From positions 7,827 through 71,826 of the forward strand of contig CAZYMF010000004.1 of NCBI GenBank assembly GCA_964648215.1: a stretch of 64,000 bases of DNA. Reading direction: 5' to 3'. A program made the translations under genes and the position numbers. The stretch is from an uncultured Candidatus Binatia bacterium (GTDB taxonomy: Bacteria > Desulfobacterota > Binatia > HRBIN30 > JACQVA1). Shown piece by piece: positions 5,022-60,691 of this stretch (position 1 is the stretch's first letter; each line of letters begins with the position of its first letter). Below the pieces are notes generated by a model that was not told the origin of the DNA, did no database searches, and saw nothing but the letters and a program-made list of their open reading frames with translations.

Positions 5022-7904
5022 ATGGAGAAGCTGGCGCGCTGGGCGCTCGTGCTGCTGGCGATGGCGGTCGTGCTGTGGGTGCGCACGCGGCCGCTCGCCC
5101 TGCCGATCACCGACGATTGGGCCGATCAACTCCTGCGGCGGCAGCTCGCCTACCGTATCGTTCAGGACGATCGGCACCGGGGTCGCGCGGCATCTCCGGC
5201 GCAGGTGGAACGGGAGGTGCAGTCCTGGATCGACGACCATGCCGAGCGCTTCGACGCGCAGCGTGCGGCCGCGTCGGAGAGTCTGCGCTCGCGCCTGCGC
5301 CACGTCGGGCCCGACGGCCGCGAGCACGTATTCCTCGGCGACGTCGACAGCTACCAATGGCTGCGCGCCGCGCGCAATTATCTCGATCACGGCACCACCT
5401 GCGACGCCGTCGTCGACGGCGAGTGCCGCGACACCCTGGCCGACGCGCCGGTGGGCGCGCGCATGATCTACAACCGCTCGCTGCACATTGCCGCCATCGT
5501 CGCCGTGCACGAGGTGATCACCTTCTTCCATCCCGGCTATCCGCTGTCGTCGAGCTCGTTCTGGGTGCCCGTGCTCGTCGGGGTGCTCGGCGTGCTGCCC
5601 GCCTTCGGCCTCGGCTGGCGCCTGGGCGGCAACGCGGGCGGCTTTTGCGCCGCGCTGCTGGTGGGGCTCGACTCGTCGCTGTTGACGCGCAGCATCGGCA
5701 GCGACAACGACGTGTGGAACGTCGTCCTGCCCTTGTTCCTGTTCTGGGCCGCGGTCGAGGCGCTGGCGGCCGGGAACCGGTGGCGTCGGATCGGCTTCGC
5801 CGTTCTCGCCGGCGTGTTCGCCGGCCTGCACGCGGCGACGTGGCGCGGATGGATCTTCGGCTACGTCGTGTTGCTGGCCGGCCTTGCCGGGACGCTGCTG
5901 TTCCACGCTCTGCGCCTGGCGTGGCAGCGGTGGCGTGGCGTTGCCGGGGCGGCAACCGCGGTCCGCGACGTTGCCGTCGTGCTCGCCGTCTTCTACGTCA
6001 GCGCGGGGGTCTTCACCACGCTTGCCGGCGCGCCGCAGTCCTATCTCGACTTGCCGTTGCGCCTGCTGGGTGGCGGCGTCGCCGAGGCCGCCGCGCCGCC
6101 ACCCAGCGCGGTCGACCTGTGGCCGAGCGCGCTGGCCACCGTTGCCGAGCTGGTGACGCCGAATCTGGGCAACATCGCCGATAGCAAGGGAGGCAAGCTC
6201 GCGCTCTTCGGTGCTCTGCTCGGGCTGTTGCTGTTGCTGCAACCGGAGGCGTGGTGGCGCCGACGCGGTCCCTGGCGCGACGCCTACGCGTCTGTCCTGG
6301 TGGCTGGCGTTGCCGCGGACGCGGTGCTGCTGTTCGCGGCGCCGTCGACCCGGTTCGCCGTCCTGGCTCTGGTGGTGGCGCCTTTGCTCGCGACCGTGCT
6401 GCTGCGGCTGGTCGATCCTGACGCAGAGAGCGAGCGCGCCAACGCGGCGCTCCTGATCGCGGTGTGGTTCCTAGCCGCCTTCTCTCTCAGCTTCGGCGCC
6501 GTGCGCTTTCTACTGCTGCTCGGCCCGCCCTTCGGTCTCGTGCTCGGAGGAGCGGCCGGTCGTCTGCAACGAGCGATCGCATCGGGCGCGCGCCGGCCGG
6601 CCGTTGCCGGGGCCGCGGTGCTCGCCGCCACCCTTCCGTTCGTGCTGCCACCCCTCTGGGGCGGCTACCGCGTCGCGCGCGCCTACGTTCCCAAGATCAG
6701 CGATGCCTGGTGGGGCACGCTGACCAACATCCGTGATCACTCGGCGCCCGATGCCATCGTCGATGCGCTGTGGGACTACGGCTACTGGGTGAAGTACGTG
6801 GCGCAGCGCCGCGTCAGCTGCGACGGCGGCACGCTGTCGACGCACGTGCACCACTGGTTCGGTCGCGCGCTGGTGACGCCGAGCGAGACCGAGAGCATCG
6901 GCCTGCTGCGCATGCTCAACTGCGGCTCCGACGCCACGCCGCACCCGGAGGGAGCCGAGGGAGCGTACGGCAAGATCGTCGCCAAGCTGCACGACCCGAT
7001 CGCCGCCGCCGCGCTGGTGACCGAGCTCGCCAGCCTCGACGAGAACGCGGCGCGCGTGGCGCTGGCGGCAAAAGGCTTCACGGCCGCGGAGCAGGCAAAC
7101 GTGCTGCGCTCCACCCACTGCCGGCCGCCGGAGTCGTTTCTGCTTCTCACCACCGAGCAGCTCGCCACGGCGACGACGTGGATGCAGTTCGGCCGCTGGG
7201 ATCTTGCCAAGGCGTACGTGGCGCAGGTGGCGCCTTACACACCGCAGCAAGAGCTGGTGCCGGAGCTGAGGAAACGCTTCGGCTACAGCGAGGAGAAGGC
7301 AACTTCGCTCTACACGCAGGCGCGCCAACTGCGCTCGCGGAAGGAACGCGAGAACTTCGCCGGACCGTCGGCGTGGTATCTGACGACGCAATGGGTACCC
7401 TGCCGCAGCGAGGCCGGCGGCAAGATGGTCTGCCCGCTGGGAATGACGGACAAGCAGACGGGGGACGTCCTCGAGGCCTTCGTCTACGATCCGGCCGCGC
7501 CCGAGCGCAGCCGACTGCGGGTGCGGCACGCGCCCGGCGGCGCTCTCGCCGCCGGCGTCACGGAGGAAACCCCGGCGGCGCTGTTGCTGGCCGACGCCGG
7601 GGGCGAGCGGGGCGTCACCCTGGGGCCGGCGACCGTGGCCCGGTTCGGCGCCCTGGTCGACGTTCCGAATCACCGGGTGCTGGTCGGCAGCCCGTTTCTG
7701 CTGCGCTCCACCTTCGTGCAGTTGATGTATCTCGATGGCCGCTACGCTCACCGCTACCAGAAGTTCGACGAGCGCGTCGCCTACAACGGCGAGCGCATCG
7801 AGGTGTGGCGGGTGAGGTGGGGAGTCACGGATCGGACCGATCGGACCGATCCGACTGATCGGACGGATCGGTCCGATCGGTCCGATGCCCCGCCCCCCGG
7901 CTGA
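5022..7904 (+). CDS. STT3/PglB/AglB-family oligosaccharyltransferase (GT66-like), 960 aa
   Basis: Polytopic N-terminal half followed by a large soluble C-terminal domain. Motifs: GDVDSYQWLRAARNY (first acidic loop motif), RSIGSDNDVWNVVLPLF (second acidic motif), ALWDYGYWVKYVAQRRVSCDGGT (the WWDYG hallmark followed by a DGGK-like element), and a tail STFVQLMYLDGRY resembling the PglB C-terminus as I recall it. Confidence 0.85.
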   Translation: MEKLARWALVLLAMAVVLWVRTRPLALPITDDWADQLLRRQLAYRIVQDDRHRGRAASPAQVEREVQSWIDDHAERFDAQRAAASESLRSRLRHVGPDGREHVFLGDVDSYQWLRAARNYLDHGTTCDAVVDGECRDTLADAPVGARMIYNRSLHIAAIVAVHEVITFFHPGYPLSSSSFWVPVLVGVLGVLPAFGLGWRLGGNAGGFCAALLVGLDSSLLTRSIGSDNDVWNVVLPLFLFWAAVEALAAGNRWRRIGFAVLAGVFAGLHAATWRGWIFGYVVLLAGLAGTLLFHALRLAWQRWRGVAGAATAVRDVAVVLAVFYVSAGVFTTLAGAPQSYLDLPLRLLGGGVAEAAAPPPSAVDLWPSALATVAELVTPNLGNIADSKGGKLALFGALLGLLLLLQPEAWWRRRGPWRDAYASVLVAGVAADAVLLFAAPSTRFAVLALVVAPLLATVLLRLVDPDAESERANAALLIAVWFLAAFSLSFGAVRFLLLLGPPFGLVLGGAAGRLQRAIASGARRPAVAGAAVLAATLPFVLPPLWGGYRVARAYVPKISDAWWGTLTNIRDHSAPDAIVDALWDYGYWVKYVAQRRVSCDGGTLSTHVHHWFGRALVTPSETESIGLLRMLNCGSDATPHPEGAEGAYGKIVAKLHDPIAAAALVTELASLDENAARVALAAKGFTAAEQANVLRSTHCRPPESFLLLTTEQLATATTWMQFGRWDLAKAYVAQVAPYTPQQELVPELRKRFGYSEEKATSLYTQARQLRSRKERENFAGPSAWYLTTQWVPCRSEAGGKMVCPLGMTDKQTGDVLEAFVYDPAAPERSRLRVRHAPGGALAAGVTEETPAALLLADAGGERGVTLGPATVARFGALVDVPNHRVLVGSPFLLRSTFVQLMYLDGRYAHRYQKFDERVAYNGERIEVWRVRWGVTDRTDRTDPTDRTDRSDRSDAPPPG

Positions 7905-9036
7905 GGAGGGCTTCGCACTCGCCCACGATCCGTGCCGCGGCATCGACGGTTGCCCACTGCCGCAAGCGGCGCGAGGCGGCGGTCCAGCCGGCGGTGTCGC
8001 GCAGCAGCGAGACGAGGCGCGAGGCCAGCGCCTCCACCCGCCACTGCTCCTCGCGCACCCACCAGCCACCGGCCTCGTTGGCCCAGGTCGAAGCGTTCGG
8101 CGTCTGGTGGTCGTCGGCGGCCGACGGCAGCGGTACCAGCAGCGCCGGCAGACCGGCGACGGCGAGCTCGGCGATCGTCGCCGCGCCGGCACGGGCGAGG
8201 GCGAAGTCGGCCCAGCGATAGGCGCCGGCCATGTCGTCGAAGTATCGCTCCACCTGCGCCGCGATGCCCGCCCCGGCGTAGGCGGCAACGACGGGAGCCG
8301 GATCGTTCTCGCCGACCTGATGGCGGACCTCGACCGCGAGGCGACGAGCGGCCAGCTGCCGCGCGAGCTCGGGTGCCTGCCGGTTGAAGAAGCGCGCCCC
8401 CTGTGAGCCGCCGGTGATCAGGAGGTGCGCGGCTCTCTGCGACGGGTGCGGCGACTGGCGCGGCTCGTGGTACAGGGCGGCGATCTCCGGGCGCACCGGG
8501 TTCCCGGTGATGCGCCGGTGCGCCGCGGGGAGCTCGCGGCCGGCGGAGGCGAAGCCGAGGTAGACGCGATCGACGAGGCGGGCGAGCCACTTGTTGGTCA
8601 GCCCCGGCACCACGTTGGCCTCGTGGATCGCGCTGGGGATCCCGAGCAGGCGCGCCGCCAGCAGCGGGCCCGCCGAGGTGTAACCGCCGAAGCCGAGCAC
8701 GAGATGCGTCCCTTGCCGCCGGAACAGACGGCCCGCCTGGGCCGTTGCGGCGATCACGCCGGCGACGGCGCGCGCCTTTCCGGCCAGGCTCGCCCCGAAC
8801 AACGGTGCGCCCGCTACCTGCTCCAGCCGATAGCCGTGCCGCGGCACCAGGCGCGACTCGTATCCGGCGCGGGTACCGAGAAACAGCACGTCGACGTCCG
8901 GTCGGGCTTGGCGATAGGCGGCGGCGACGGCGAGGGCCGGGGAGACGTGCCCGGCGGTGCCGCCGCCGATCATGGCCACCCGCCGCGACGCGGCGGCCGC
9001 GGAAGAGGTGGGCTCGGGATCGGAGTGCGGCGGCAT
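7825..9036 (-). CDS. murG: MurG-like GT28 UDP-GlcNAc transferase (paralog-like context, outside any dcw cluster)
   Basis: This is the C-terminal 403 codons of the 813-aa track ORF. MIGGGTAGHVSPALAVAAAY, GFGGYTSAGPLLAARLLGIPSAIHEAN, LLITGGSQGA and ARAGAATIAELAVAGLPALLVPLP are classical MurG motifs. Start ATG at 9036 (or the inner ATG near 8973). The upstream part of the track ORF is antisense to the next gene. Confidence 0.85.
   Translation of the reverse strand: MPPHSDPEPTSSAAAASRRVAMIGGGTAGHVSPALAVAAAYRQARPDVDVLFLGTRAGYESRLVPRHGYRLEQVAGAPLFGASLAGKARAVAGVIAATAQAGRLFRRQGTHLVLGFGGYTSAGPLLAARLLGIPSAIHEANVVPGLTNKWLARLVDRVYLGFASAGRELPAAHRRITGNPVRPEIAALYHEPRQSPHPSQRAAHLLITGGSQGARFFNRQAPELARQLAARRLAVEVRHQVGENDPAPVVAAYAGAGIAAQVERYFDDMAGAYRWADFALARAGAATIAELAVAGLPALLVPLPSAADDHQTPNASTWANEAGGWWVREEQWRVEALASRLVSLLRDTAGWTAASRRLRQWATVDAAARIVGECEALLSRGAGHRTDRTDPSDQSDRSDRSDP
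7831..7886. repeat. 9-bp tandem repeat (ATCGGWCCG x6) forming a perfect long hairpin at convergent gene ends
   Basis: Units ATCGGACCG ATCGGACCG ATCCGACTG ATCGGACGG ATCGGTCCG ATCGGTCCG. Positions 7831-7851 are the exact reverse complement of 7866-7886 (21 bp), extendable by 2 bp inward. It lies inside both the STT3 ORF (stop 7902-7904) and the murG-like ORF (stop 7827-7825). Confidence 0.9.
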
Positions 9037-9150
9037 CGGCGTGCGACTGTAACGGGGCGCCGGGGGGCGAGGCAATCGCCCCGCGCCGGCGCACGCCGTT
9101 CGGCACCGGCGCCGTTCTCGTGTATAGGCGGCGTGGCGCTGTCCTTTCCC

Positions 9151-10224
9151 ATGTGGACTTACGGTCTCCTTTGCGGCACGGCGGCTGCGGTGGCGTTTCT
9201 CCTCACACCGGCGGTGCGCCTGCTGGCGTTGCATTTCGGCGCCGTCGACGAGCCCGGCGGCCGGCGGGCGCACCGCGGGCGGATCCCGCGCCTGGGCGGC
9301 CTGGCCGTGTTGGGTGCCGGCCTCCTCGGGCTGTTGTTGCCGTGGCTGGGCGGGGTGCCGGTGTTCGCCGCGCTGATCGCCCGCGGCTGGAGGCTGGGCT
9401 GGTTCTTGGCGGGAACGCTGCTGATCACCGCTGTCGGCGTTTTCGACGACTGCCGCGAGGCGACGCCGTGGCCCAAGCTCGCGTTCGAGACGCTGGCGGC
9501 GGTGGTCGCGGTCGCCGGCGGCTTCGGCTTCTCCGCCGTGTCGAATCCGTTCACCGGCGGCTCCATCGAGCTCGGCGCGCTGGGAGCCTTGCTCTCCGTG
9601 CTGTGGATCGTCGGCATCACCAACGCCTTCAACCTCATCGACGGACTGGACGGTCTGGCGGCCGGCGTTGCCCTGATCGCCGCGGCGACCATCTTCGTGC
9701 TCGCGGGGGTGCAGGCGCGCCCGGACGCGGCCGTGCTCACCGCCGTGCTCGCCGGCGCGCTGCTCGGCTTTCTGCGCTACAACTTTCATCCCGCCTCGAT
9801 CTTCCTTGGCGACTCCGGCAGCTTGTTGCTCGGCTACGTGCTCTCGGTGCTGTCCATCCAAGGGCAGCAAAAGGTCCCGACCGTCGTCGTCCTGCTGGTG
9901 CCGATCCTGGTGCTCGCCCTGCCGATCGTGGAGACCGTGGTCACCGTCGTGCGCCGCTACGGTCGCGAGGGCGCGGCGGGTCTCTTCCACGCCGATCGTG
10001 AGCACATCCACCACCGCCTGGTGATGCGGGGCATGGCGCCGCGGCGCGCGGTGTTGCTGCTCTACGGTATCTGCAGCGGCCTCGGCCTGCTGGCGGTGCT
10101 CGCCGTGGTCGCCGGCGGACCGGGCAGCGCGGTGCTCGTGCTGGTCGCCGCCCTCGCCGGCTATTTCGGGCTGCGCCGTCTGGGGTACGGCTTCGTGCGC
10201 GGCGGAACCCTGACCCATGACTGA
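9151..10224 (+). CDS. Polyprenyl-phosphate GlcNAc-1-phosphate transferase (WecA/MraY PNPT family)
   Basis: Starts at ATG 9151 (MWTYGLLCG). About 10 TM segments; VFDDCRE acidic motif; NAFNLIDGLDGLAAG; FLGDSGSLLLGY; HIHHRLV. Divergent from the murG-like gene. Confidence 0.85.
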   Translation: MWTYGLLCGTAAAVAFLLTPAVRLLALHFGAVDEPGGRRAHRGRIPRLGGLAVLGAGLLGLLLPWLGGVPVFAALIARGWRLGWFLAGTLLITAVGVFDDCREATPWPKLAFETLAAVVAVAGGFGFSAVSNPFTGGSIELGALGALLSVLWIVGITNAFNLIDGLDGLAAGVALIAAATIFVLAGVQARPDAAVLTAVLAGALLGFLRYNFHPASIFLGDSGSLLLGYVLSVLSIQGQQKVPTVVVLLVPILVLALPIVETVVTVVRRYGREGAAGLFHADREHIHHRLVMRGMAPRRAVLLLYGICSGLGLLAVLAVVAGGPGSAVLVLVAALAGYFGLRRLGYGFVRGGTLTHD

Positions 10225-10963
10225 AGCGTCACCCGGGCCCTCGTCGCCCACGGCGGGCTCGACCACACTGGTCCTGCTGTCCTACGACGAGCGCGAGGCC
10301 CTCGAGCGGCTCCTGCCGCTGATCCCCCTCCACCTCTTCGAGCGGGTCGTCGCCATCGACCCGGGCTCGACCGACGGCACGTTGGCTCTGTACGAGGCGC
10401 GCGGGATTCCGTGCGTGATTCAACCCGCGCGCGGGCGCGGCAATGCGTTCTTGCTGGCGGCGGAGATCGTCGACAGCGAGCGGGTGGTCTTCTTCAGCGC
10501 CGACGGCAACGAGAACCCGGAAGATCTGCCCCTGCTGCTCCGCTATCTCGACGAGGGCAACGACCTGGTCATCGGCGGCCGCTTCCTCCGCCCCGGATCG
10601 TGCAGCGACAACAGCGACGACCCCTGGCGGTTGCGCCGCGCCGGCTCGATCGGCTTCAGCCTGGTCGTCCGGCTGCTGTGGGGCTGCGACGTGTGGGACT
10701 CGTGCAACGGCTTTCGCGGCTTCCGCGTCGAGGCCATGCGGCGCCTGCGTCTGGACGCGCCGTTGCACGAGATCGAGCTGCAGAGCACCATCCGCGCCGC
10801 CAAGCTGGGCATGAAGATCAAGGAGTTCCCGACCCGCGAGCTGCGGCGGATGGGCGGCTGGCGCAAGCCGACCGCCGGGACCTGGACCCTGGGTTGGAGG
10901 ACGGCTCTCTATCTCGTGCGCGAGATCCTCATCGGCCGGCGCTTCGATGGCTCGCCGCGCTGA
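10217..10963 (+). CDS. Small GT2 glycosyltransferase, polyprenyl-phosphate sugar synthase-like (Dpm1/ArnC-like size and layout)
   Basis: LVLLSYDEREALERLLPLI, AIDPGSTDGT, FFSADGNENPEDLP, NGFRGFR. 248 aa and soluble. Its start overlaps the preceding stop by 8 nt and its end overlaps the next start. Confidence 0.75.
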   Translation: MTEASPGPSSPTAGSTTLVLLSYDEREALERLLPLIPLHLFERVVAIDPGSTDGTLALYEARGIPCVIQPARGRGNAFLLAAEIVDSERVVFFSADGNENPEDLPLLLRYLDEGNDLVIGGRFLRPGSCSDNSDDPWRLRRAGSIGFSLVVRLLWGCDVWDSCNGFRGFRVEAMRRLRLDAPLHEIELQSTIRAAKLGMKIKEFPTRELRRMGGWRKPTAGTWTLGWRTALYLVREILIGRRFDGSPR

Positions 10964-12422
10964 CCCCCCGGCCGCGCCCGCCGCCGTCCGCGGCTGGAAG
11001 CGGCACCTGCCCGTCCTGCTGCTGTGTCTGTTCTTCGTCGGGCTCTACGCCACGACGTTGCGGTCGCTGGGGATGCTGGGATGGGACGAGTCGGAGTACG
11101 CCTCGCTGGGCCGCTCGGTGCTGCGGGGCGAGGGATTCTCGATCAGCGGGCGGCCCAACTCGCTGCGCCCGCCGCTGCTGCCGCTGGCGGTGACGGCGAG
11201 CTTGCTGGTGACCGGCAGCGCCAGCGACGTCGCCGCGAAGCTGCCCAACCTCTCCTTCAGCGCGCTCGCCCTCCTGGTCGTCTACGCGGCGATGGCGCGC
11301 GAGCGGGACCGCCTCACCGCCTGGATCGCCACCGCCTTTCTCGGGCTGATGCCGACGTTCTGGCTCTTCACCCCCAGGTTGCTGACCGAGATTCCGTTCA
11401 TGGCGTTCTTCACCGCCGCGATCGCGTGCTTCTATTTCGGCCTCTACCGTGACGGGCGTTTCTTCTATGTCAGCTGGATCTCCGTCGCGCTGGCGTTGCT
11501 GAGCCGCTACACGGCGGTGCTGTTCGGGCCCATCGCGCTGGCTTTCACGCTGATGGCGCTTGCCGCCGCCGACGCCCGCCAACGGATCCGTGGGCGGCAC
11601 TTCTGGCTCTCCCCCTTCGCCGGCCTGGCGCTGTTGCTGCCCTGGCTGCTGCGCCAGCAGCTCGTCTTCGGCAGCGCCCTGGTCGGGTTTCAGCATGCCT
11701 CCGGGCAGCTGCAGGCGTACCTGCCGGGGGTCTCGATGCCGTGGTACTTCTACCCGGCCCACGTCCCGGGGATGGTCTCGCCGCTGCTGTGCGCGCCGTT
11801 GCTCGTCGGCATCGTCTGGGCGGTGCGGACGCGGGACCGCTTTGCCTTGCACTGCCTCTTCGTGGTCGGGTTCGTCTTGCTGTGGTTCAGCGCCTATCGC
11901 TTCAAGGAGATCCGCATGGCGACGTCGACGTTGCCCTTCCTGGCCATGGTGGCGGCGCTCGGTGTGACGCAGGTCGTTCTGCCGCGGCGGCTGACGGCAC
12001 CCGTGCTCGGCGGGGTCGCCGTCTTCCTGATCGGTGTCTTCGCCTTCTCCTTCGTCAGGACGCACCGATTCTTCTCGCGCGCGGTGACGCTCGGCTATCC
12101 CTCCTTCACCGAAGCGATGCGTGCGGTGCGCGAGCGCACGGCGCCCAACACCGTCCTGATGGGCGCCAGCGTGCCGCAGATCTTCTGGTACGCCGATCGT
12201 CACGTCGTCGATTTCCCCGACGAGAAGGATCTCCCCGGGGCCTTGCGGCGGTGCGACTGGGTGGTCGTGGTCAACTTCGAGCGCGGACAGAAGCCCTATG
12301 CGCGCCAGTTGCTGGCCAAGGTGACCCAGGAGGACGGTGCGCAAGGGAACGCGCTCGTCTCCCGCGATGTGCGTTTCACCACGGTGTTGATTCGCGCCTC
12401 GCTGTTGCGGGAGCGGTTGTAG
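10947..12422 (+). CDS. GT-C fold glycosyltransferase of ArnT/PMT (GT83/GT39) type
   Basis: 491 aa and polytopic. The first periplasmic loop carries LGWDESEYASLGRS (a DE-x-x-Y motif as in ArnT/PMT_2 proteins). The C-terminal soluble region is about 110 aa. Confidence 0.8.
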   Translation: MARRADPPAAPAAVRGWKRHLPVLLLCLFFVGLYATTLRSLGMLGWDESEYASLGRSVLRGEGFSISGRPNSLRPPLLPLAVTASLLVTGSASDVAAKLPNLSFSALALLVVYAAMARERDRLTAWIATAFLGLMPTFWLFTPRLLTEIPFMAFFTAAIACFYFGLYRDGRFFYVSWISVALALLSRYTAVLFGPIALAFTLMALAAADARQRIRGRHFWLSPFAGLALLLPWLLRQQLVFGSALVGFQHASGQLQAYLPGVSMPWYFYPAHVPGMVSPLLCAPLLVGIVWAVRTRDRFALHCLFVVGFVLLWFSAYRFKEIRMATSTLPFLAMVAALGVTQVVLPRRLTAPVLGGVAVFLIGVFAFSFVRTHRFFSRAVTLGYPSFTEAMRAVRERTAPNTVLMGASVPQIFWYADRHVVDFPDEKDLPGALRRCDWVVVVNFERGQKPYARQLLAKVTQEDGAQGNALVSRDVRFTTVLIRASLLRERL

Positions 12423-12443
12423 CCGGCCGCGGCGGTTCCCCTC

Positions 12444-13808
12444 TTGGCGGGGCTGTGCCATAAACCAACGCGATCGCGGAGACGTCCCCGGCATGGCGAT
12501 GACGAAAATCCTGGCGGCGGCCGCGCGGGTTTGAGCGACTTGCCGCGACCGCAGCGAGTGGCCGTCGTCGTGCTCGGTGATCTCGGGCGCAGCCCGCGGA
12601 TGCAGTACCACGCGCAGGCGCTGGCCGGCGCCGGCGTCGAGGTGGATCTGATCGGCTACGAGGGCAGCGAGCTGCCGCGCGAACTGCGCGAGAGCCCGCG
12701 CCTGCGCTGTCATTTGCTGCGCGCGAGCCGGCCGGCGCCGCGCCGGCCGCGGCTGCTCTTCGTCGCCGGCTCCGCCCTGCGCGTGCTGCGGCAATGCGGC
12801 CAACTGCTGTGGGTGCTGCTGTTTCGCATCGACCGACCCAACGTCGTCGTGGTGCAGAATCCGCCGGCGGTGCCGACGCTGTTGCTGGCCGTGCTGGCGG
12901 CGCGGGTGCGCCGGGCCAAGCTGGTGGTCGATTGGCACAATTTCGGGTACGCGATGCTCGCTCTGTCGCTCGACCCGCATCATCCGCTCGTTCGCGTCGC
13001 GCGCTGGTACGAGCGCCGTCTGGCGCGCTTTGCCGACGCGCACCTGTGCGTGTCGCGGGCGATGCAGGCGACGATGCGAACGCAGTGGGGCGTCGCGGCG
13101 GCGGTGCTCTACGATCGACCCGCGGCGCGCTTTCAAGCGGCGTCGGCCGAGGCGCGGCGGGAGCTGCGGCAACGGCTCGCAGAGGCGGTTCCCGAAATGG
13201 TCGTCGCCCGGCCGCCGGCCATCGTCGTCAGCCCGACGAGCTGGACGGCGGACGAGGACTTCGATCTCTTGCTCGACGCCGTTCAACGCTGCGACCGCTT
13301 GCTGTCCGAGCCCGCGCCAGGGTCCGAGCCGGAGCGCGTGGCGCTCCTCGTTCTTCTCACCGGCCGGGGCCCGCTGCGCGCGGCTTACGAGGAACGGATG
13401 CGCCGGATGCCGCTGCGACGGATTCGCCTGCGCGCGCTGTGGCTGAGCCCGCCGGACTATCCGCTGCTGCTGGCGGCCGCCGATCTCGGCCTCTGCCTCC
13501 ACCGCTCGGCCGCGGGAGTAGATCTGCCGATGAAGGTCAGCGACATGTTCGGCGCCGGCTTGCCCGTGTGCGCGTTCGACTACGGGCCCTGTCTCGCCGA
13601 GCTGGTGCACGCGGGCGAAAACGGGCTGCTGTTTTCCTCGGCCGAAGAGCTGGCGCGGCAGCTTTGCCGAGTCGCGGGCGAGCTTCCCGGCGGTGCGTCG
13701 TGGCTGGAGCGGTTGCGGGAGAACGTCCTTGCGCACCGCCAGACGTGGGAGGAAGGTTGGCAGCGGGAGGCCTGGCCGGTGCTCTCCCGGCTGCTGGGGG
13801 CCGAGTAG
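12444..13808 (+). CDS. ALG1-like beta-1,4-mannosyltransferase (GT33)
   Basis: Segment-by-segment resemblance to yeast Alg1 as I recall it: VLGDLGRSPRMQYHA, VQNPPAVPTL, VVDWHNFGY, VLYDRPAARFQ, VSPTSWTADEDFDLLLDA, LTGRGPL, LWLSPPDYPLLLAAADLGLCLHRSAAGVDLPMKVSDMFGAGLPVCA. The true start is uncertain; in-frame TTG 12531, TTG 12540 and GTG 12558 are alternatives. Confidence 0.85.
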   Translation: MAGLCHKPTRSRRRPRHGDDENPGGGRAGLSDLPRPQRVAVVVLGDLGRSPRMQYHAQALAGAGVEVDLIGYEGSELPRELRESPRLRCHLLRASRPAPRRPRLLFVAGSALRVLRQCGQLLWVLLFRIDRPNVVVVQNPPAVPTLLLAVLAARVRRAKLVVDWHNFGYAMLALSLDPHHPLVRVARWYERRLARFADAHLCVSRAMQATMRTQWGVAAAVLYDRPAARFQAASAEARRELRQRLAEAVPEMVVARPPAIVVSPTSWTADEDFDLLLDAVQRCDRLLSEPAPGSEPERVALLVLLTGRGPLRAAYEERMRRMPLRRIRLRALWLSPPDYPLLLAAADLGLCLHRSAAGVDLPMKVSDMFGAGLPVCAFDYGPCLAELVHAGENGLLFSSAEELARQLCRVAGELPGGASWLERLRENVLAHRQTWEEGWQREAWPVLSRLLGAE

Positions 13809-13844
13809 GATTCGACCCGGTCGCCCCACCTTGGTAGAGCTGGC

Positions 13845-15089
13845 ATGGGAAATGGTTCCGAAAGGCAGCGCTTGAAGATCGCCATCCTTCATCCCGACCT
13901 CGGCATCGGCGGCGCCGAGCGGCTGATCGTCGATGCCGCCGTGCAGCTCCAGGCTGCCGGACACCGGGTCACGATCTTCACCAATCACCACGACCCGGCG
14001 CACTGCTTCGCGCCCACCGCCGACGGCACCCTGGAGGTGCGAGTCTTCGGCGCGTCTCTCCCGAGCCACGTCGCGCAGCATCTGCGCGCGCCCTGTGCCG
14101 TGACGAGGATGCTCTACCTCTGCGGGGCGGCGGCCCGCCACGGCCCGTTCGACGTCTTCCTCTGCGACCTGGTGGCGCACGTGATCCCGGCGCTCAAGTG
14201 GCTCGCCCGGACCCCGGTCGTCTTCTACTGTCACTTTCCCGATCAGTTGCTGGTCACGCGCGATCGGTGGCCGTATCGCCTCTATCGCCTGCCCATCGAT
14301 CGTCTCGAGCAATGGGCCACGGGGCACGCCGATCGCGTCCTGGTCAACAGCCGCTTCACCGCGGCGATGTTTGGGAAGGCGTTTCCCCGTTTGCACTGGC
14401 TCACTCCCGACGTTCTCTATCCCGCCACCGGCGACGTCGACGGCTGCGTCGAAACGACCCCGGGGGACGAGCCCATGTTGCTGGCGATCGGGCGCTATGA
14501 TCGTTCCAAGAAGATGGTTCTCGCCGTCGAAGCCCTGGCGCACTTGCGCCAATGCCTGCCCGCGCCCGCGGCGGACAAGGTGCGCCTGGTGATCGCCGGT
14601 CACTACGACGCCGGCTCTCGCGAGAACGTGCTGGCGATGCGGGAGCTGGAGTCGGCCGTGCGCGCCTTCGGGCTGCAGGAGCAGGTGACGCTGCGGCGCT
14701 CGCTGTCGGATGCGGAGCGCATCGATCTCCTGGAGCGCTGCTCGTGCCTCGTCCACACCATGCCCAACGAGCACTTCGGCCTGGTTCCCGTCGAGGCGAT
14801 GGCCGCGGGCAGACCGGTGGTCGCGGTGCGCCGGGGCGGGGTGATGGAGACGGTGCGCCACGGCGAGACGGGCCTGCTGTGCGAGCCCAACCCGGAGGCT
14901 TTTGCCGCGGCCCTGGCGCGCTTGCTGCGCGATCGCGACGAGGCCGCGCGCATGGGGCGGGCGGCGCGGCTGCGTGCTCGGACGCTCTTTTCCCGCGCCG
15001 CCTTCGGCGAGCGTCTCGACGCCATCGTTCGCGAGGTGGCGGCCAAGAAGGCCGGCGCCGAGAGGGGAGCGGCGTGCTCGGCAGCCTGA
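13845..15089 (+). CDS. ALG2-like alpha-1,3/1,6-mannosyltransferase (GT4)
   Basis: [82 protein letters not shown] and [19 protein letters not shown] match the Alg2 pattern ([21 protein letters not shown] ... [10 protein letters not shown]) from memory. Confidence 0.85.
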   Translation: [414 protein letters not shown]

Positions 15090-16921
15090 AGAAATGCCTC
15101 CGCTTTCTCAGCCCCAGCGACCGCTGGCGCTGGGCGAGCTTGATCCCGCTGATCGTCGTGGCCGCCGCGATGGAGGCCGTCGGCGCCGCGGGCGTGTTCC
15201 TGCTCATCAAGCTCACCGCCGATCCGTCGCAGGTGTCCTCGGTGCCGGTCATCTCCGGTCTCTACGCGCGGCTGCCGTGGCACGGCGACAAGGCGATCAT
15301 TCTCGAAGCCACGTTTCTGATCGCGTCGTACTACCTGCTGAAGAACGCCTCGCTGGCCCTGATCTCGGCGCGGCAGAACAGGGTCGTCGGCGAATCGGTG
15401 GCGCGGCTGGGGCGCGAGATGCTGAAGGGCTACCTCGCGGTGCCTTTCGCCTTCCACCTGCGGCGCAACTCCGCCGATCTGATCCGCAACGCAACCGACT
15501 CGGTCGACCGCGTGTTCCGGTTCGTCCTGGCATCGATCGTGGCCGGGTGCGCCGAGGCTCTGATCGTCCTCGGCATCATCGTCGTGCTGCTGACGACGGC
15601 GCCTGGGCTGGCGCTCACCGCGGTGGTCATCCTGTTCGCGCTGCTGGCCGGTGTCATCCGCGGCACGCGACGGGTTCTGCTGCAATGGGGGCGCGAGGAT
15701 CAGCGGTTGCGGGGAGCGGCGCTGCAGACCCTGCAGCAGGCGCTGGCGGGCGTGAAGGAGGTGAAGCTCCGCGGCTGCGAGCCCTTCTACTTCGAGCGTT
15801 TCTGGGCGCAGGAGGACGATCTGGCGCGGGCGCGCGCGCGCTACGACACGTTGTCGATGGCCTCGCGGCTGCTGATCGAGGCGGTCTTCGTGTGTGGCCT
15901 GCTGCTGGTGATCACCCTGGTGACCCTGCGGGGGCGGGGCCCGGACCTCGTCCCGTTGCTCGGCCTCTACGCCTACGCGGGTTTTCGCATCATTCCCTCG
16001 CTCAATCGGATTCTCATGTACGTCAGCAGCATTCGCTACGGCGCCGGCGCCGTCGAGCCGCTCTACGAGGACTGGCAGATGTTCCTTCGCCTGCCGCCGC
16101 CACCGGAGGCCGTCTCCGCGCGTGCCGTGACCTTCGCCGACCGGCTGGTTCTCGACGGCGTGTCGTATCAGTACGAGGGGGCGTCGGCTGCCGCGCTGGA
16201 GAACGTCTCGCTGGCGATTCGACCCGGCGAATCGATCGGGATCGTCGGCCCGACGGGAGCCGGGAAGAGCACCCTGATCGACGTCGTGCTCGGGTTGCTG
16301 GTCCCCTCGCGGGGGCGGGTCACGGCCGACGGCGTGAACATCTTCGAGGCGCTGGCGGCGTGGCAACGGAAGATCGGCTATGTCCCCCAAACGGTGCATC
16401 TGACCGATGATACCCTGCGCCGCAACATTGCCTTCGGCATCGAGGACGACGGGATCGACGACGACAAGATCCGGCGGGCGCTGCGCATGGCGCAGCTGGA
16501 GGATGTCGTCGGCTCTCTTGCCCTCGGGCTGGAGACCACGATCGGTGAGCGCGGCGTGCGCCTGTCCGGCGGCGAGCGCCAGCGGGTTGCGATCGCCCGC
16601 GCCCTCTACCTGCAGCCCGAGGTGCTGGTGTTCGACGAGGCGACGTCGGCATTGGATGCGCAAACCGAGCGCGAGCTGACGCAGGCGATCGAAGCGCTGC
16701 AGGGGCAGAAGACGCTGATCATCGTGGCGCACCGCCTGAGCACGGTGCGGCGCTGCGACCGGCTGGTCTTTCTGCGACAGGGTCGCGTGGCCGACGTCGG
16801 CTCGTTCGACGAGCTGCTCGGGCGCAACGCCGCCTTCCGCGCGATGGCGGCGCCGAGCGGCGACGAGGGAATCGCGGCGATGCCGCCGCCGCTCGGTGCC
16901 GGCCGCAAAGCGACCGGGTAG
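15074..16921 (+). CDS. ABC transporter, fused permease/ATPase (MsbA/PglK-type exporter), candidate lipid-linked oligosaccharide flippase
   Basis: GTG 15074 (VLGSLKKCL) overlaps the ALG2-like stop by 16 nt. Six-TM exporter domain, then Walker [10 protein letters not shown], signature LSGGERQR and Walker [13 protein letters not shown]. The track ORF start at 14552 is an upstream extension across the previous gene. Confidence 0.85.
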
Positions 16922-19243: not shown

Positions 19244-20215
19244 TTGAAGACGTATCTGATCACCGGCGGCGCGGGCTTCATCGGCAGCCACCTCGCCGAG
19301 GCGCTGCTCGCCGCCGGAAATCGCGTGCTGGTGATCGACGACCTGTCGACCGGGAGCCTCGACAACGTCGCTTCGGTGCGGCAGCACCCGCGTTTCGAGA
19401 TCGCCGTCGACACCATCTTCAACCGCGAGCTGGTCGCCGATCTCGTGGCCCGGGCCGACGCCGTTTTTCACCTCGCCGCCGCCGTCGGCGTGCGCCTGAT
19501 CGTCGAGAGCCCGGTGCGCACCATCGAGACCAACGTCGCCGGCACCGAGCTGATCCTCGCCGCCGCCGCCAGGTCGCGCACCCGGGTGCTGATTGCCTCC
19601 TCCTCCGAGGTCTACGGCAAGGCGAACAAGGTGCCCTTCTGCGAGGACGACGACCTGGTGCTCGGCAACACCCGCACCGGGCGCTGGTCGTACGCCTGCA
19701 GCAAGGCCCTCGACGAGTTTCTCGCCCTCGCCTACTGCCGCGAGAAGCAGCTGCCGGCCATCGTCGTGCGGCTGTTCAACACCACCGGCCCGCGGCAGAC
19801 GGGACGCTACGGCATGGTGCTGCCGACCTTCGCCCGCCAGGCCCTGTCGGGGAGCCCGCTCACCGTCTTCGGCGACGGTAAGCAGAGCCGCTGCTTCTGC
19901 GACGTGCGCGACGTCGTCGCCGCCCTGACGGCGGTGATGGAGCACCCCGACGCGCCCGGTCGCGTGTTCAACATCGGCAGCCGGGAAGAGGTCTCCATCG
20001 AGGAGCTGGCGGTGCGCGTGAAGGCGCTGGCCGGCAGCCGGTCCGCGATCGTTCACGTTCCGTACGAGCAGGCGTGGGACGAGCAGTTCGAGGACATGCG
20101 CCGGCGGGTCCCGGATCTTCGCCGCATCCGCGAGCTGATCGGGTTCGAGCCGAGAACCACGCTCGAAGAGCTGATCCGGCGCGTCCTCGAGCACGAGCGC
20201 GTTGCCGGGGGATGA
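19244..20215 (+). CDS. NAD-dependent epimerase/dehydratase (extended SDR, nucleotide-sugar modifying)
   Basis: TTG start with GAAGGAG upstream. ITGGAGFIGSHLAEALL, catalytic YACSKALDE (YxxxK), FNTTGPRQ. Confidence 0.85.
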   Translation: MKTYLITGGAGFIGSHLAEALLAAGNRVLVIDDLSTGSLDNVASVRQHPRFEIAVDTIFNRELVADLVARADAVFHLAAAVGVRLIVESPVRTIETNVAGTELILAAAARSRTRVLIASSSEVYGKANKVPFCEDDDLVLGNTRTGRWSYACSKALDEFLALAYCREKQLPAIVVRLFNTTGPRQTGRYGMVLPTFARQALSGSPLTVFGDGKQSRCFCDVRDVVAALTAVMEHPDAPGRVFNIGSREEVSIEELAVRVKALAGSRSAIVHVPYEQAWDEQFEDMRRRVPDLRRIRELIGFEPRTTLEELIRRVLEHERVAGG

Positions 20216-21768
20216 GCGTGGCGACCAAGATCCTGTTCGTCGCCCTCGACGCCGCCGATCGCGATCACATCCTGCGGTGGGCGGAAGAGGGTCGGCTGCC
20301 GACCTTGCGCCGCCTGCTCGACGGCGGCGCGTCGGCGACCACGTTGGCGCCCCTCGGCATGCACGCCGCTTCGGTGTGGCACTCCTTTGTCACCGCGGTC
20401 ACACCGGGAAAGCACGGGCGTCACGGCGATCGTCAGGTTCGCCCCGGCACCTACGAGATGTACCGCTTCCAGCCTACGGACACGAAGCGGGAGTCGTTCT
20501 GGCACACGCTGAGCCGTGCCGGCCGCCGCGTGGCGGTGATCGACGCGCCGTATGTTCCCCTGTTGCGCGGCATCAACGGCATGCACGTGCTGGACTGGAC
20601 GACGCACGCAAAGGACACGGGCTTTTGCACCGAGCCGCCCGCGCTCGCAGGCGAGATACGGGCGCGCTTCGGGGACGATCCGATCGGCTTGTGCGATCAC
20701 CGGCACCTGCAGACGGGCGCCGAGATCGCCGCGTTTCGCGACGGGCTGACGGCCAAGGTGAGGCTCAAGCTCGATCTGTCGCGGCACTTCCTCGCGCGCG
20801 GCGAGTGGGACCTGTTTCTCACCGCCTTCGGCGAGAGCCACTGTGCCGGTCACCAGTGCTGGCACCTCAACGATCCACGCCATCCGCGGTTCGATGCCGC
20901 CGTGGCGCGCGTTGCCGGCAACCCGATGCTCGACGTGTACCGCGCCCTCGACGATGCCATCGGCGCGCTTGTCCGCGACGCCGGACCGGAGGCGACCGTG
21001 TGCGTGCTCGCCACGCACGGCATGGGCCCCTTCTACAACGGCGCGCACCTGCTCGGGGAGATCCTCGTCCGCCTCGGCCACGCGCCGCCGCCCCGGGCGC
21101 CGTCGCGCACCTGGGCGCTGCTGCGCCGGGGCTGGCGGCTGCTGCCGCTGCGCTTGCGGACGCGGCTGACGCCGCTGCACAAGGCCGCGGTGGATCGGGT
21201 GTGGCCGAAGCTCGATCGGAGAGCCGATTGCTTCGACATGCCCAACGGCGAAGTCTACGGGGCGATTCGTATCAACCTGGCGGGACGCGAGCCGGCCGGG
21301 CGTATCCGTCCCGGCGCCGACTACGAGGCGTTCTGCGAGCAGCTCAGTGCCGACCTCCGTGCCCTGATCAACGACGACACCGGCCAGCCGGCCGTCCGCC
21401 GGGTGCTGCGCACCGCCGAGCTCTATCCGGGCCCCTGTCTCGACGACCTGCCCGACCTGCTCGTGGAATGGAGCTCGGACGCGCCCCTGACCACGGTGTC
21501 GTCGGCGAAGGTCGGCACCATCCAGCGTCCCTTCGACGGGACGCGCACCGGCCATCACAAGCGCGAGGGGCTGTTCCTCGTCTGCGGCCCGGGCATCCGA
21601 CCCGGCCGCGCGCCGGCGCCCGTCTCCATCATGGACGTCGGGCCGACGGTGGCGGCGCTGCTCGGCTGCACCCTGCCCGACGTCGACGGAAAGCCCGTCA
21701 TCGCCTGTCTGCCGGAGGACGGTGTGGCTCGAGCAGACGGGCCAGGAGCCGTTCGGTCGCACGCGTGA
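20212..21768 (+). CDS. Alkaline-phosphatase superfamily / type I phosphodiesterase-nucleotide pyrophosphatase-like protein
   Basis: ATG 20212 overlaps the previous stop (ATGA). ILFVALDAADRDHILRW ... LTAFGESHCAGHQ ... VLATHGMGP ... TGHHKREGLF fit the metal-site pattern of the Phosphodiest family. The track start at 20074 is an upstream extension. Confidence 0.65.
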   Translation: MSVATKILFVALDAADRDHILRWAEEGRLPTLRRLLDGGASATTLAPLGMHAASVWHSFVTAVTPGKHGRHGDRQVRPGTYEMYRFQPTDTKRESFWHTLSRAGRRVAVIDAPYVPLLRGINGMHVLDWTTHAKDTGFCTEPPALAGEIRARFGDDPIGLCDHRHLQTGAEIAAFRDGLTAKVRLKLDLSRHFLARGEWDLFLTAFGESHCAGHQCWHLNDPRHPRFDAAVARVAGNPMLDVYRALDDAIGALVRDAGPEATVCVLATHGMGPFYNGAHLLGEILVRLGHAPPPRAPSRTWALLRRGWRLLPLRLRTRLTPLHKAAVDRVWPKLDRRADCFDMPNGEVYGAIRINLAGREPAGRIRPGADYEAFCEQLSADLRALINDDTGQPAVRRVLRTAELYPGPCLDDLPDLLVEWSSDAPLTTVSSAKVGTIQRPFDGTRTGHHKREGLFLVCGPGIRPGRAPAPVSIMDVGPTVAALLGCTLPDVDGKPVIACLPEDGVARADGPGAVRSHA

Positions 21769-22870: not shown

Positions 22871-22941
22871 GCACCGTTACCACGCGCCGCTCGGCAAGAC
22901 ACGTTCGGGCCGCGCGGATCTGTGCTAAGGGGAGCGCGCCG

Positions 22942-24048: not shown

Positions 24049-24204
24049 CCAGGAGCACGCCGAGCATCCGCTGGCGTTCGAGGCAGCGGGACCAAGCGAT
24101 AGATCGGCCCGCGGCGCTCGAGACGGAAATGCCGGCGAATGCCGTCGACGTCGTAGCAGCTCCATTTCCCCTGACGCGACGAATCGCCTAGAACCCGCGC
24201 ACCG

Positions 24205-26370: not shown

Positions 26371-26522
26371 CGTGGCCGTCTCTTATAGGCCGATGGAGTC
26401 GGCGAAGGTAGAGGCGGCCGCGGTCGGTCGAACGACTCCCGCGTCCCTGGCGATGAGCGCCGCACCCTCCGTCCCGCGGGGTTGACGCCCGCCGCGACAA
26501 CTGACAGGACGACCCTCGGGTC

Positions 26523-52849: not shown

Positions 52850-53201
52850 GACCGTTCCTCCAGTCTCAACCGTCTTGGCAGTCGCGCTCGGCACATTGAG
52901 TGCCGCTCGGTGCCGTCCTGGCCGTCCTGTATGAGCATACTACTCGCCATGGCGAAATGGGACTTGTCCCCTTTTCGGGTGTCTGCGGCGTCGTGGTCGC
53001 CGAGTCACTTACCGCAACCAGCGCCGTCCAGCTGCTTGGTCGTCTACACCGCTGAAACAACGATTGACAACCCCGTCCGCCTCCGTGTTAACGGCCATGT
53101 CGAATTGGACGGCAGAGGAGAAAGGGGGGCGCCGAGGTGATGGAGGCCACGGCGGGCGACCCGCGCACTTCGACTAGCGGGGCTGTTCCAGGGAGAGTCC
53201 G

Positions 53202-54341: not shown

Positions 54342-54501
54342 TCTCCCCGAAGTTTGTCGGCCGTTGCTGACCAGGCTGGTCTGCCCCGGCGAGCAACCGT
54401 TTGCGCGGGGTTCTTCGGCGGGCGGGTCGATCTGCCATCACCGTTTCCGCCCCCCGATTTGACGTTTGCTCCGGTCTCATGCAGTAGCCTGAAGCTCGCT
54501 C

Positions 54502-60581: not shown

Positions 60582-60691
60582 TCCACTTCCGCGCCGCGGA
60601 AACTCCTGGCGCTGGCAGCATATAGAGCCGGGATCTCGGCGTGGTCAAGTAGACGTACGGCGTCGGCTCGTTGCGGCCCAGTGGCTGCCGC

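Follow-up and report, generated by a model that had tools for sequence, protein, structure and literature searches.

A candidate locus for eukaryote-type N-glycan assembly and transfer in an uncultured Binatia bacterium

Introduction

Could a bacterium assemble a eukaryote-type N-glycan core on a lipid carrier and transfer it to its own proteins? The question is raised by eight neighbouring genes in a 64,000-nt stretch of DNA (the window) from an uncultured Candidatus Binatia bacterium, which include an STT3/PglB-family oligosaccharyltransferase (OST) and relatives of the eukaryotic mannosyltransferases ALG1 and ALG2 (ALG1L and ALG2L below). An earlier note on this DNA had mapped the eight genes one-to-one on the dolichol pathway. 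We followed up that proposal with profile and homologue searches, structure modelling and comparison of related loci, and conclude, at a probability of roughly 0.6, that the locus is a lipid-linked oligosaccharide (LLO) assembly pathway plus OST yielding a GlcNAc2Man(1-3)-type N-glycan. The reading as eukaryote-type N-glycan assembly was supported, and none of the checks on the placement of ALG1L and ALG2L, on the STT3 residues or on the contig refuted it.

The origin of ALG1 was described as unknown by Lombard (2016), who found no prokaryotic relatives (PMC4973528). Working with single enzymes, an October 2025 preprint argues for a bacterial ancestry of both ALG1 and ALG2. There, yeast alg1 was complemented by homologues found in Gammaproteobacteria, Polyangia and Binatia metagenome-assembled genomes (MAGs) and yeast alg2 by homologues found in MAGs of the first two groups, and these enzymes, together with a weaker ALG2 from Deltaproteobacteria, produced Man1GlcNAc2 and Man3GlcNAc2 on a pyrophosphate-linked lipid (PP-lipid) in vitro (Xu et al., 2025, bioRxiv 10.1101/2025.10.15.682550). 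Archaea were reported there to be without reliable ALG1 homologues, and the archaeal ALG2 homologues that were assayed were without ALG2 mannosyltransferase activity (bioRxiv 10.1101/2025.10.15.682550). The preprint deals with the same protein families in the same lineages (Binatia, Deltaproteobacteria, Methylomirabilota and Polyangia MAGs) but treats the enzymes singly; its text is without operon, STT3 or PglB, and oligosaccharyltransferase appears only for the eukaryotic OST complex and in the reference list. Full-text searches of a literature library gave no description of such a linked bacterial locus.

Results

ALG1L and ALG2L resemble the eukaryotic mannosyltransferases

Open reading frames for all eight genes were present where the earlier note had placed them (Table 1), and exact sequence look-up showed six of the eight to be identical to NCBI products, all on one 72,645-bp MAG contig (STT3, 960 aa; MurG-like, 403; GT2, 248; GT-C, 491; ALG2-like, 414; ABC, 615). 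Pfam and NCBIfam models were applied with their curated cut-offs. These placed the STT3, GT28 and polyprenyl-phosphate HexNAc-1-phosphate transferase (PNPT) proteins in the families predicted for them, but returned only generic GT-B/GT4-type domains for ALG1L and ALG2L, with all NCBIfam scores far under the cut-offs, and it was direct searches that placed these two.

Table 1. Positions of the features discussed, in window coordinates
Feature	Position	Strand	Remarks
STT3/PglB-family oligosaccharyltransferase (GT66)	5022..7904	+	960 aa, ~12-13 transmembrane helices plus periplasmic domain; PF02516
MurG-family GT28 glycosyltransferase	7825..9036	-	GT28 N- and C-terminal domains; proposed second-GlcNAc step (Alg13/14 or Agl24 role)
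Divergent intergenic region, MurG-like/PNPT	9037..9150		114 bp; presumed promoter region, from coordinates and sequence
WecA-like PNPT	9151..10224	+	PF00953; candidate initiation step
Small GT2, candidate polyprenyl-phosphate-hexose synthase	10217..10963	+	PF00535; start 8 bp inside PNPT end
GT-C glycosyltransferase, PMT_2/ArnT-like	10947..12422	+	PF13231; 17-bp overlap with GT2; candidate periplasmic extension from lipid-P-sugar
ALG1 (GT33) relative, predicted beta-1,4-mannosyltransferase	12444..13808 (start probably 12531 or 12558)	+	match to eukaryotic ALG1s
ALG2-type GT4, predicted alpha-1,3/alpha-1,6-mannosyltransferase	13845..15089	+	GIGGAER and EHFGLVPVE
ABC half-transporter, MsbA/PglK type	15074..16921	+	ABC_membrane and ABC_tran; 16-bp overlap with ALG2L stop; candidate LLO flippase
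SDR sugar-nucleotide dehydratase/epimerase	19244-20215		second glycan locus, ~2 kb downstream of ABC gene
Phosphodiesterase-family protein	20074-21768		second glycan locus
GT4	21698-22870	-	second glycan locus
GT4	~22630-24048	+	second glycan locus
GT4	24175-25338	+	second glycan locus
Second WecA-like PNPT	25330-26382	-	second glycan locus
Wzy_C/O-antigen-ligase-family protein	26505-29528		1007 aa, C-terminal TPR repeats; second glycan locus

With the protein from 12444 as query, HMMER searched 1.84 billion representative proteins exhaustively and recovered 4,153 relatives; among 19 listed matches that were looked up by name ten were eukaryotic and three more had the JGI ALG1 name. Named eukaryotic ALG1s matched at 290-355 bits (E 1e-81 to 6e-101) with 38-46% identity over about 400 residues, and the eukaryotic matches spanned five supergroups and included oomycetes, fungi, algae, Rhizaria and Holozoa. 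The top one was from Globisporangium ultimum (UniRef K3WDV9, 'Beta-1,4-mannosyltransferase'; 355 bits, E 6e-101), and the others were from three chytrids (Blyttiomyces, Entophlyctis and Geranomyces), from Pneumocystis, Geopyxis and Piptocephalis, and from the holozoan Syssomonas, the rhizarian Paulinella and the green alga Chloropicon. When compared over a trimmed alignment of 406 columns, six eukaryotes were 38-45% identical to the window ALG1L, bacterial relatives from other phyla 46-58%, and the neighbouring GT4 (ALG2L) 22%. Bacterial homologues run to thousands in MAGs of several phyla at a mutual identity of 46-68%, and many of them carry the JGI name 'beta-1,4-mannosyltransferase', which is the ALG1 orthology name.

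The blocks GDxGxSPRM, QNPP, DWHNxG, TSWTxDExF and DLPMKxxDMFG, which were derived from the compared sequences themselves and not from a published definition, are all found in the window ALG1L, and each is shared by 8-10 of the 10 eukaryotic ALG1s and 65-107 of the 119 bacterial relatives compared. A rough neighbour-joining tree grouped the six eukaryotes as one clade amid bacterial lineages; the tree is too crude to give the direction of transfer. ALG1L had no match among PDB sequences. Judged by its sequence, the protein is a true, orthologue-level relative of ALG1 (GT33). The earlier assignment of the gene therefore held, except that homologue N-termini and the DNA make 12531 (TTG) or 12558 (GTG) a more likely start than 12444. 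Bacterial relatives begin 2-10 residues ahead of the GDxGRSPRM block and no hydrophobic N-terminal segment was seen, the start codon being uncertain. The NCBI call for this gene, 402 aa from Met53 of the open reading frame, removes a conserved VLGDLGRSPRM block that is common to eukaryotic ALG1, and this start was rejected because it would cut the conserved GDLGRSPRM motif.

ALG2 activity has been reported to require the motifs G-I-G-G-A-E-R and E-H-F-G-I-V-P-L-E, the latter with its Val; bacterial ALG2 homologues keep both, whereas the archaeal ones all lack the G-rich loop, the EX7E motif is missing in Asgard homologues and the Val is mostly replaced in those of TACK archaea (bioRxiv 10.1101/2025.10.15.682550). 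ALG2L of the window has GIGGAER at residues 20-26 and EHFGLVPVE with the critical Val kept, and across its family GxGGAER is found in 106 of 120 members and EHFGxxPxE in 113 of 120. As an internal control we used the three other GT4 genes of the window, which are without either motif and read EAFG... or EGFG... instead. Relatives of ALG2L bear the JGI ALG2 KO name 'alpha-1,3/alpha-1,6-mannosyltransferase'. Motifs, control and names together support the proposed identity as an ALG2-like GT4. For both proteins, an ordinary polysaccharide GT4 identity was ruled out by the eukaryotic ALG1 matches and the ALG1 and ALG2 motifs.

The STT3 protein keeps the OST motifs and a PglB-like fold

The STT3 protein scored 95 bits against PF02516 (cut-off 24.5) and 25.8 bits against the STT3-PglB_core model PF21436 (cut-off 23). 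In an alignment of 88 sequences of its subfamily D109, R223, D228, D230 and E376 are invariant, and D107, V374 and W583-W584-D585-Y586-G587 nearly so. The first acidic motif reads LGD107-V-D109SY and would be equivalent to the DxD of external loop 1 (EL1), judging from where the Pfam match starts. The second, GSD228-N-D230VWN, is invariant in the 88 sequences, and its D228-N-D230 was aligned onto the D-N-E motif of human STT3A in a profile alignment. T373-V-A-E376, with a TIxE-like pattern, is the predicted EL5 motif. At the WWDYG position the window reads LWDYGYW (residues 583-589) and its relatives mostly WWDYGYW, and this block was aligned onto the WWDYG of Pyrococcus AglB. A check for the catalytic acidic residues of STT3, which the earlier note had called for, found them retained.

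An AlphaFold (AF2) model built from the 88-sequence alignment reached a pLDDT of 92.4 and a pTM of 0.91. Foldseek comparison of this model to the PDB gave OSTs for all of the top 19 matches, the best being Campylobacter lari PglB (5ogl/6gxc/3rce; E 4e-15, TM 0.65-0.68, 11-12% identity, whole length), followed by A. fulgidus AglB and then human and yeast STT3. Compared with C. lari PglB, the window protein has about 250 more residues, and its first periplasmic loop is unusually long (residues ~21-173). The family score, the acidic, TxxE and WWDYG motifs and the PglB-like fold all agree with the STT3 assignment, and to our knowledge all characterised STT3/PglB/AglB enzymes are N-oligosaccharyltransferases.

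Cysteines 127, 135, 634, 700, 794 and 804 of the STT3 protein are invariant or nearly so in the 88 sequences, two lying in the long first periplasmic loop and four in the C-terminal domain. This pattern points to conserved disulfides.

The MurG-like enzyme is paired with ALG1L across phyla

The GT28 gene had been proposed to fill the Alg13/Alg14 role. Both of its GT28 domains were confirmed, but the protein is a close relative of bacterial MurG, not nearer to Alg13/14 by sequence, and is not an Alg13/14 orthologue. It scored 266.6 bits against the murG equivalog model TIGR01133, a marginal pass of the 250.25 cut-off, and matched P. aeruginosa MurG at 189 bits. Loop I reads GGTAGH, as it does in most cluster-linked copies, where E. 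coli MurG has GGTGGH, and the catalytic His is retained. The published MurG motif is G13GTGGH, and the loop is a presumed contact site for the acceptor diphosphate (PMC8993221). With the ftsW-murC context of E. coli as reference, the gene lies outside a dcw cluster: no FtsW, MurD or MurC homologue was found in the window or in any of the fetched loci having a homologue matched by E. coli MurG (23 of 23), and the MurG-like gene adjoins ALG1L in at least 20 loci from several phyla. The pairing with ALG1L across phyla, the lack of FtsW, MurD and MurC nearby and the GGTAGH loop I suggest that the enzyme is a dedicated paralogue and not the cell-wall enzyme.

Candidate enzymes for initiation, extension and flipping

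The PNPT scored 144.7 bits against its family model and has about 11 hydrophobic segments. Its family was as proposed, but it is of the WecA/MraY type rather than the Alg7 type that the earlier mapping implied: the best-scoring NCBIfam model was TIGR02380 WecA (132.7 bits), ahead of the MraY models, and among PDB sequences bacterial MraY matched at 61 bits versus 35 bits for human DPAGT1. The WecA score is far under the equivalog cut-off of 326, and a specificity for GlcNAc is presumed. The gene is kept at 46-60% identity in several related clusters (L003, L004, L030, L042 and L048; L numbers denote relatives' loci from our genome, contig and metagenome scans).

The small GT2 had been likened to polyprenyl-P-sugar synthases and the GT-C to ArnT/PMT-type enzymes, and both likenesses were upheld. 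For the GT2 the best NCBIfam models were AglJ (73.6 bits) and Dol-P-hexose transferase (42.4 bits), both under cut-off, and the best PDB match was the Pyrococcus Dol-P-Man synthase 5mlz (E 3e-6); its relatives in L001 and L030 are 69-71% identical. The GT-C scored 46.7 bits against PMT_2 (cut-off 26.1) and 21.6 bits, under cut-off, against the Alg9-like PF03901. It has about 9 hydrophobic segments, and W46-D47-E48 of the first loop is invariant in 3 orthologues. No match was found among PDB sequences using the single query or a 3-sequence profile, and a single-sequence structure model was of low confidence (pLDDT 44.8). Among the related loci the GT2/GT-C pair is confined to the window, L001 and L030, which marks it as an accessory module. 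Relatives have GT-C genes of other types after the ABC exporter, namely a YfhO-family gene (L030, 14481-17078) and a TMEM260-like gene (L039, 20467-22476). TMEM260 is a human protein O-mannosyltransferase. These genes suggest variable periplasmic decoration modules.

The ABC exporter had been described as MsbA/PglK-type, and this was upheld, with scores of 286.7 bits for the MsbA model and 267.7 bits for PglK, both under cut-off. It lies downstream of ALG1L and ALG2L in L003, L004, L025, L030, L032, L033, L039, L044 and others.

The gene neighbourhood is conserved in several phyla

A scan for ALG1L in one genome per GTDB species gave 29 loci, from Candidatus Binatia, Acidobacteriota (Vicinamibacterales, Terriglobia and Bryobacterales), Rokubacteria/Methylomirabilia and one Betaproteobacteria MAG. 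A MurG-like gene was directly beside ALG1L, usually divergent, in 12 of the 29, and ALG2L and/or the ABC exporter came next in many; STT3 was within 10 kb of ALG1L in three Binatia loci. The core module, a MurG-like gene divergent from ALG1L-ALG2L-ABC, was seen repeatedly, in MAGs of Binatia, Acidobacteriota, Methylomirabilia and Rokubacteria. Solitary ALG1L genes (L005-L020, for example those of L018 and L012, both at 9998-11251) are flanked by amidohydrolase, xanthine-dehydrogenase-like, aldehyde dehydrogenase or MFS/LysR genes.

From the STT3 side we combined the loci of the GTDB scan with five long-contig look-ups and a metagenome scan. Among the matches listed, the metagenome scan with an STT3 profile gave mostly distant STT3-like genes (20-30% identity) without partners, and nine close relatives. 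A locus was taken as informative if it held a close STT3 subfamily member (at least 37% identity), which gave 14 loci (the window, L001, L003, L004, L030, L032, L037, L038, L039, L041, L042, L043, L044 and L048). The MurG-like partner was present in 13 of the 14, missing from L038, and ALG1L in 12, being absent from L038 and from L043, where the contig ends just beyond the MurG-like gene. ALG2L and the ABC exporter were each present in 8/14 and the PNPT in 6/14. Gene order and orientation vary among these loci, with the mannosyltransferase block inverted relative to STT3 in L044 and L048, and this variation argues for selection on the linkage and not for shared descent of one arrangement. The L038 cluster is composed of Bac_transf, several GT4s, asparagine-synthase-like genes, UDP-GlcNAc 2-epimerase and polysaccharide deacetylase, and no ALG1L or MurG-like gene was found in it.

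The locus is bacterial and soundly assembled

The view of the earlier note that the contig is bacterial and not contamination was confirmed. G+C content is even along the window at 0.65-0.74, about 70%, and the locus is flanked by the bacterial housekeeping genes AmpG, a PlsB-type acyltransferase and RNase R. The STT3/MurG-like/PNPT junction recurs at 98.7% identity in an independently assembled metagenome contig (L040), and the ALG1L/ALG2L/ABC junction at 99.9% identity in independent metagenome assemblies (L035/L036). Because independent assemblies from other samples reproduce its junctions, the locus is not chimeric. The closest related loci are in Candidatus Binatia MAGs. No tRNA genes were found in the window.

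The start/stop overlaps of the plus-strand genes (10217/10224, 10947/10963 and 15074/15089) were verified, but the proposal that all six plus-strand genes form one operon was not borne out. A gap of 110-135 nt separates the GT-C gene from ALG1L if the latter starts at 12531 or 12558, and in L001 and L030 an opposite-strand short-chain dehydrogenase/reductase (SDR) gene lies between GT2/GT-C and ALG1L-ALG2L-ABC, so the six genes are probably not one operon. The intergenic region between the MurG-like and PNPT genes was without a sigma-70 consensus, and a promoter/terminator scan gave no signal exceeding shuffled expectation, so that operon boundaries are set here by inference only.

The STT3 and MurG-like genes are convergent and their 3' ends share 80 bp. 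Inside this overlap, at 7830-7886, lies the 9-bp tandem repeat GATCGGACC in 6.3 copies, which codes for (T/S)DR repeats on both strands and so forms the C-terminal tails of both proteins. The 98.7% identical contig L040 has only about 3 copies (1946-1973), a variation in copy number that stays in frame for both genes.

Elsewhere in the window, 58254-60644 on the minus strand encodes a protein of about 796 aa in which a bacterial thrombospondin type-3 (TSP3_bac) repeat is all that was recognised. The neighbouring open reading frames 53178-54341 and 54493-55518 had no Pfam match.

Discussion

A proposed pathway of mixed ancestry

In the pathway that we propose, which would be complete for N-glycosylation, the WecA-like PNPT would form undecaprenyl pyrophosphate (Und-PP)-GlcNAc at the cytoplasmic face, GlcNAc being the presumed sugar, and the MurG-family GT28 would add a beta-1,4-GlcNAc to give Und-PP-chitobiose, this GT28 being probably a cell-wall enzyme paralogue whose acceptor is GlcNAc-PP-lipid and not lipid I. 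The ALG1 orthologue would then add a beta-1,4-Man to the chitobiose lipid, and the ALG2 orthologue an alpha-1,3- and an alpha-1,6-Man, giving Man3GlcNAc2-PP-Und. The PglK/MsbA-type exporter may flip this product to the periplasmic face, where in this genome the GT2, as a lipid-P-hexose synthase, and the GT-C could add one or more optional hexoses. Finally the PglB-like STT3 would transfer the glycan en bloc to Asn of presumed exported acceptor proteins. The carrier would be a polyprenyl, presumably undecaprenyl.

Direct evidence covers the gene identities, the orthology-level similarity to ALG1 and ALG2, the intact OST motifs and fold and the conserved linkage. The ALG1 and ALG2 activities proposed for the window draw on preprint data for homologues, and we infer protein glycosylation by the locus. 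The best-supported view is that the pathway is a mosaic in which initiation, flipping and transfer are carried out by bacterial-type proteins and only the two mannosyltransferases are orthologous to those of eukaryotes. The one-to-one mapping on the dolichol pathway is therefore good in a functional sense but not as orthology for the PNPT, the GT28 (a MurG relative), the flippase (PglK/MsbA-type) or the OST (nearest to PglB).

Alternative readings

Several observations weigh against a dedicated N-glycan pathway. The sugar specificity of the PNPT would follow only from a family-level likeness to WecA with a score below cut-off, and the MurG-like protein, with its pass of the murG equivalog model and an identity of 37% to the E. 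coli enzyme, could have the housekeeping role; its acceptor switch from lipid I to GlcNAc-PP-lipid would be the weakest link in the chitobiose step. Many ALG1L genes stand alone in Vicinamibacterales-type Acidobacteriota, as does one in a Betaproteobacteria MAG, no partner for glycosylation lying within 10 kb of them, and L033 has the MurG-like, ALG1L, ALG2L and ABC genes without STT3 within 10 kb. The STT3 subfamily member of L038 (10001-12670, 41% identity) belongs to an unrelated cluster whose glycan has a Bac_transf initiator, so the subfamily is not tied to a single glycan. The window itself has a second glycan locus (19244-29528) whose PNPT and Wzy_C protein could use lipid-linked glycans.

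One reading of these facts is a pgl-like N-glycosylation with a glycan that is not eukaryotic, started on another HexNAc derivative, with the MurG-like protein as the housekeeping lipid II enzyme and the ALG1- and ALG2-like enzymes acting on another acceptor. The level of similarity to E. coli MurG is what is usual for orthologues, the PNPT is WecA-like at the family level only, and an SDR dehydratase/epimerase lies inside the cluster in relatives and 2 kb downstream in the window. We nevertheless consider this reading unlikely, since bacterial homologues of ALG1 and ALG2 use GlcNAc2-PP-lipid and Man1GlcNAc2-PP-lipid and replace the yeast enzymes (bioRxiv 10.1101/2025.10.15.682550), ALG1L and the MurG-like gene form divergent pairs in several phyla, away from any dcw context, loop I of the MurG-like enzyme departs from the MurG consensus GGTGGH, and bacillosamine-type aminotransferase and acetyltransferase genes were not found among the window open reading frames scanned. 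The Man(n)GlcNAc2-type glycan could also be made but be destined mainly for a lipopolysaccharide/O-antigen-like polymer, for O-glycoprotein via a Wzy_C/PglL-type ligase or for a surface polysaccharide, with STT3 loosely coupled or serving another glycan. The Wzy_C-TPR protein, second PNPT and three GT4 genes lie 5-12 kb downstream, ALG1L-ALG2L-ABC of L033 has no STT3 within 10 kb, many Acidobacteriota have ALG1L alone, and L038 couples the STT3 subfamily to a different glycan cluster. Against this, in 12-13 of 14 informative loci, which vary in lineage and gene order, STT3 is within a few kb of ALG1L and the MurG-like gene, a pattern that unrelated functions do not predict; the Wzy_C locus is not kept beside the module in annotated relatives whereas STT3 is; and the characterised STT3/PglB/AglB enzymes that we know of are all N-OSTs. 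We find this destination rather improbable.

That the ALG1- and ALG2-like genes represent eukaryotic contamination, a chimera or a very recent transfer from a eukaryote, with no meaning for a pathway, is extremely improbable. An identity of 38-46% to eukaryotic ALG1 is unusually high across domains, but the uniform G+C of about 70% and the reproduced junctions effectively refute contamination or chimera, the genes overlap with bacterial genes between AmpG, PlsB-type and RNase R flanks, homologues number thousands in several bacterial phyla at 46-68% mutual identity, and in the rough neighbour-joining tree the eukaryotes are one clade and not a source group for bacterial ALG1L.

Comparison with known systems

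The Campylobacter jejuni/lari pgl system (PglB, PglK, PglC, PglA/H/I/J and PglDEF) has a similar layout, in which clustered glycosyltransferases build an LLO cytoplasmically, an ABC half-transporter flips it and a single-subunit STT3-family OST transfers it. The window locus differs in starting with a WecA-like PNPT and not a PglC-type phosphoglycosyl transferase, in elongation by MurG-, ALG1- and ALG2-type enzymes and not PglA/J/H/I, and in an OST that shares only 11-12% identity with PglB, exceeds it by about 250 residues and has an extended first periplasmic loop. As for PglDEF-type genes and a PglC-type initiator, the window open reading frames scanned were without a DegT-type aminotransferase, a PglD-type acetyltransferase or a Bac_transf domain.

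With the cytosolic half of the eukaryotic dolichol pathway (ALG7, ALG13/14, ALG1 and ALG2) and its OST the locus shares the order of the chemistry, and ALG1 and ALG2 at orthologue-level similarity. In contrast, its PNPT and GT28 are bacterial-type, the GT28 is one polypeptide and not split, the ALG11, RFT1, ALG3/9/12 and ALG6/8/10 set is absent from the locus, which has one GT2 and one GT-C, the carrier is presumably undecaprenyl and not dolichyl, and the OST is single-subunit. Bacterial ALG1-like proteins also appear to be without the N-terminal membrane anchor of eukaryotic ALG1. Crenarchaeal N-glycosylation with a chitobiose core (AglH, Agl24 and AglB) likewise places GlcNAc2 on a PP-lipid via an enzyme related to MurG and Alg13-14 and transfers it by an STT3 homologue (PMC8993221). 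Agl24 is distant to MurG, whereas the GT28 of the window is a close MurG relative.

A synthetic pathway is mirrored part for part. Valderrama-Rincon et al. reportedly engineered E. coli in 2012 to make Man3GlcNAc2 glycoproteins using WecA, yeast Alg13/14, Alg1 and Alg2, a native flippase and PglB. That set is nearly the same as the one described here: both have a PNPT and an OST of bacterial origin, the latter with a single subunit, together with a GT28 step, ALG1, ALG2 and a flippase. The synthetic set uses yeast enzymes, whereas the window locus would be natural and all-bacterial.

Significance

A bacterial chitobiose-mannose core pathway had been called unusual. Part of that surprise is already taken by the 2025 preprint, which has the bacterial ALG1 and ALG2 enzymology; what is new is the linked locus, that is, a bacterial OST-centred N-glycosylation locus with a eukaryote-type core. 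If the proposed pathway is true, the logic of the whole cytosolic N-glycan pathway works as a unit in bacteria, and its origin can be tested by reconstitution and phylogeny. Bacterial N-glycosylation would reach well past Campylobacterota and Desulfobacterota, to abundant lineages of soil and sediment that are uncultured, with a glycan so far not known from bacteria. For biotechnology, where E. coli production now borrows yeast enzymes, the locus would offer an all-bacterial, co-evolved Man3GlcNAc2 set with an OST that presumably prefers that glycan.

The locus also bears on the origin of eukaryotic N-glycosylation. We hold tentatively, at somewhat short of an even chance, a wider reading in which Binatia and their relatives, some Acidobacteriota and Methylomirabilota/Rokubacteria, all free-living, N-glycosylate with Man3GlcNAc2 through a compact, horizontally mobile cassette (PNPT, MurG paralogue, ALG1, ALG2, ABC flippase and PglB-like OST), and in which ALG1 and ALG2 passed to eukaryotes during eukaryogenesis. 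If this were true, the N-glycan core would be older than eukaryotes and would have come from a working bacterial system, and not piecemeal from an archaeal pathway.

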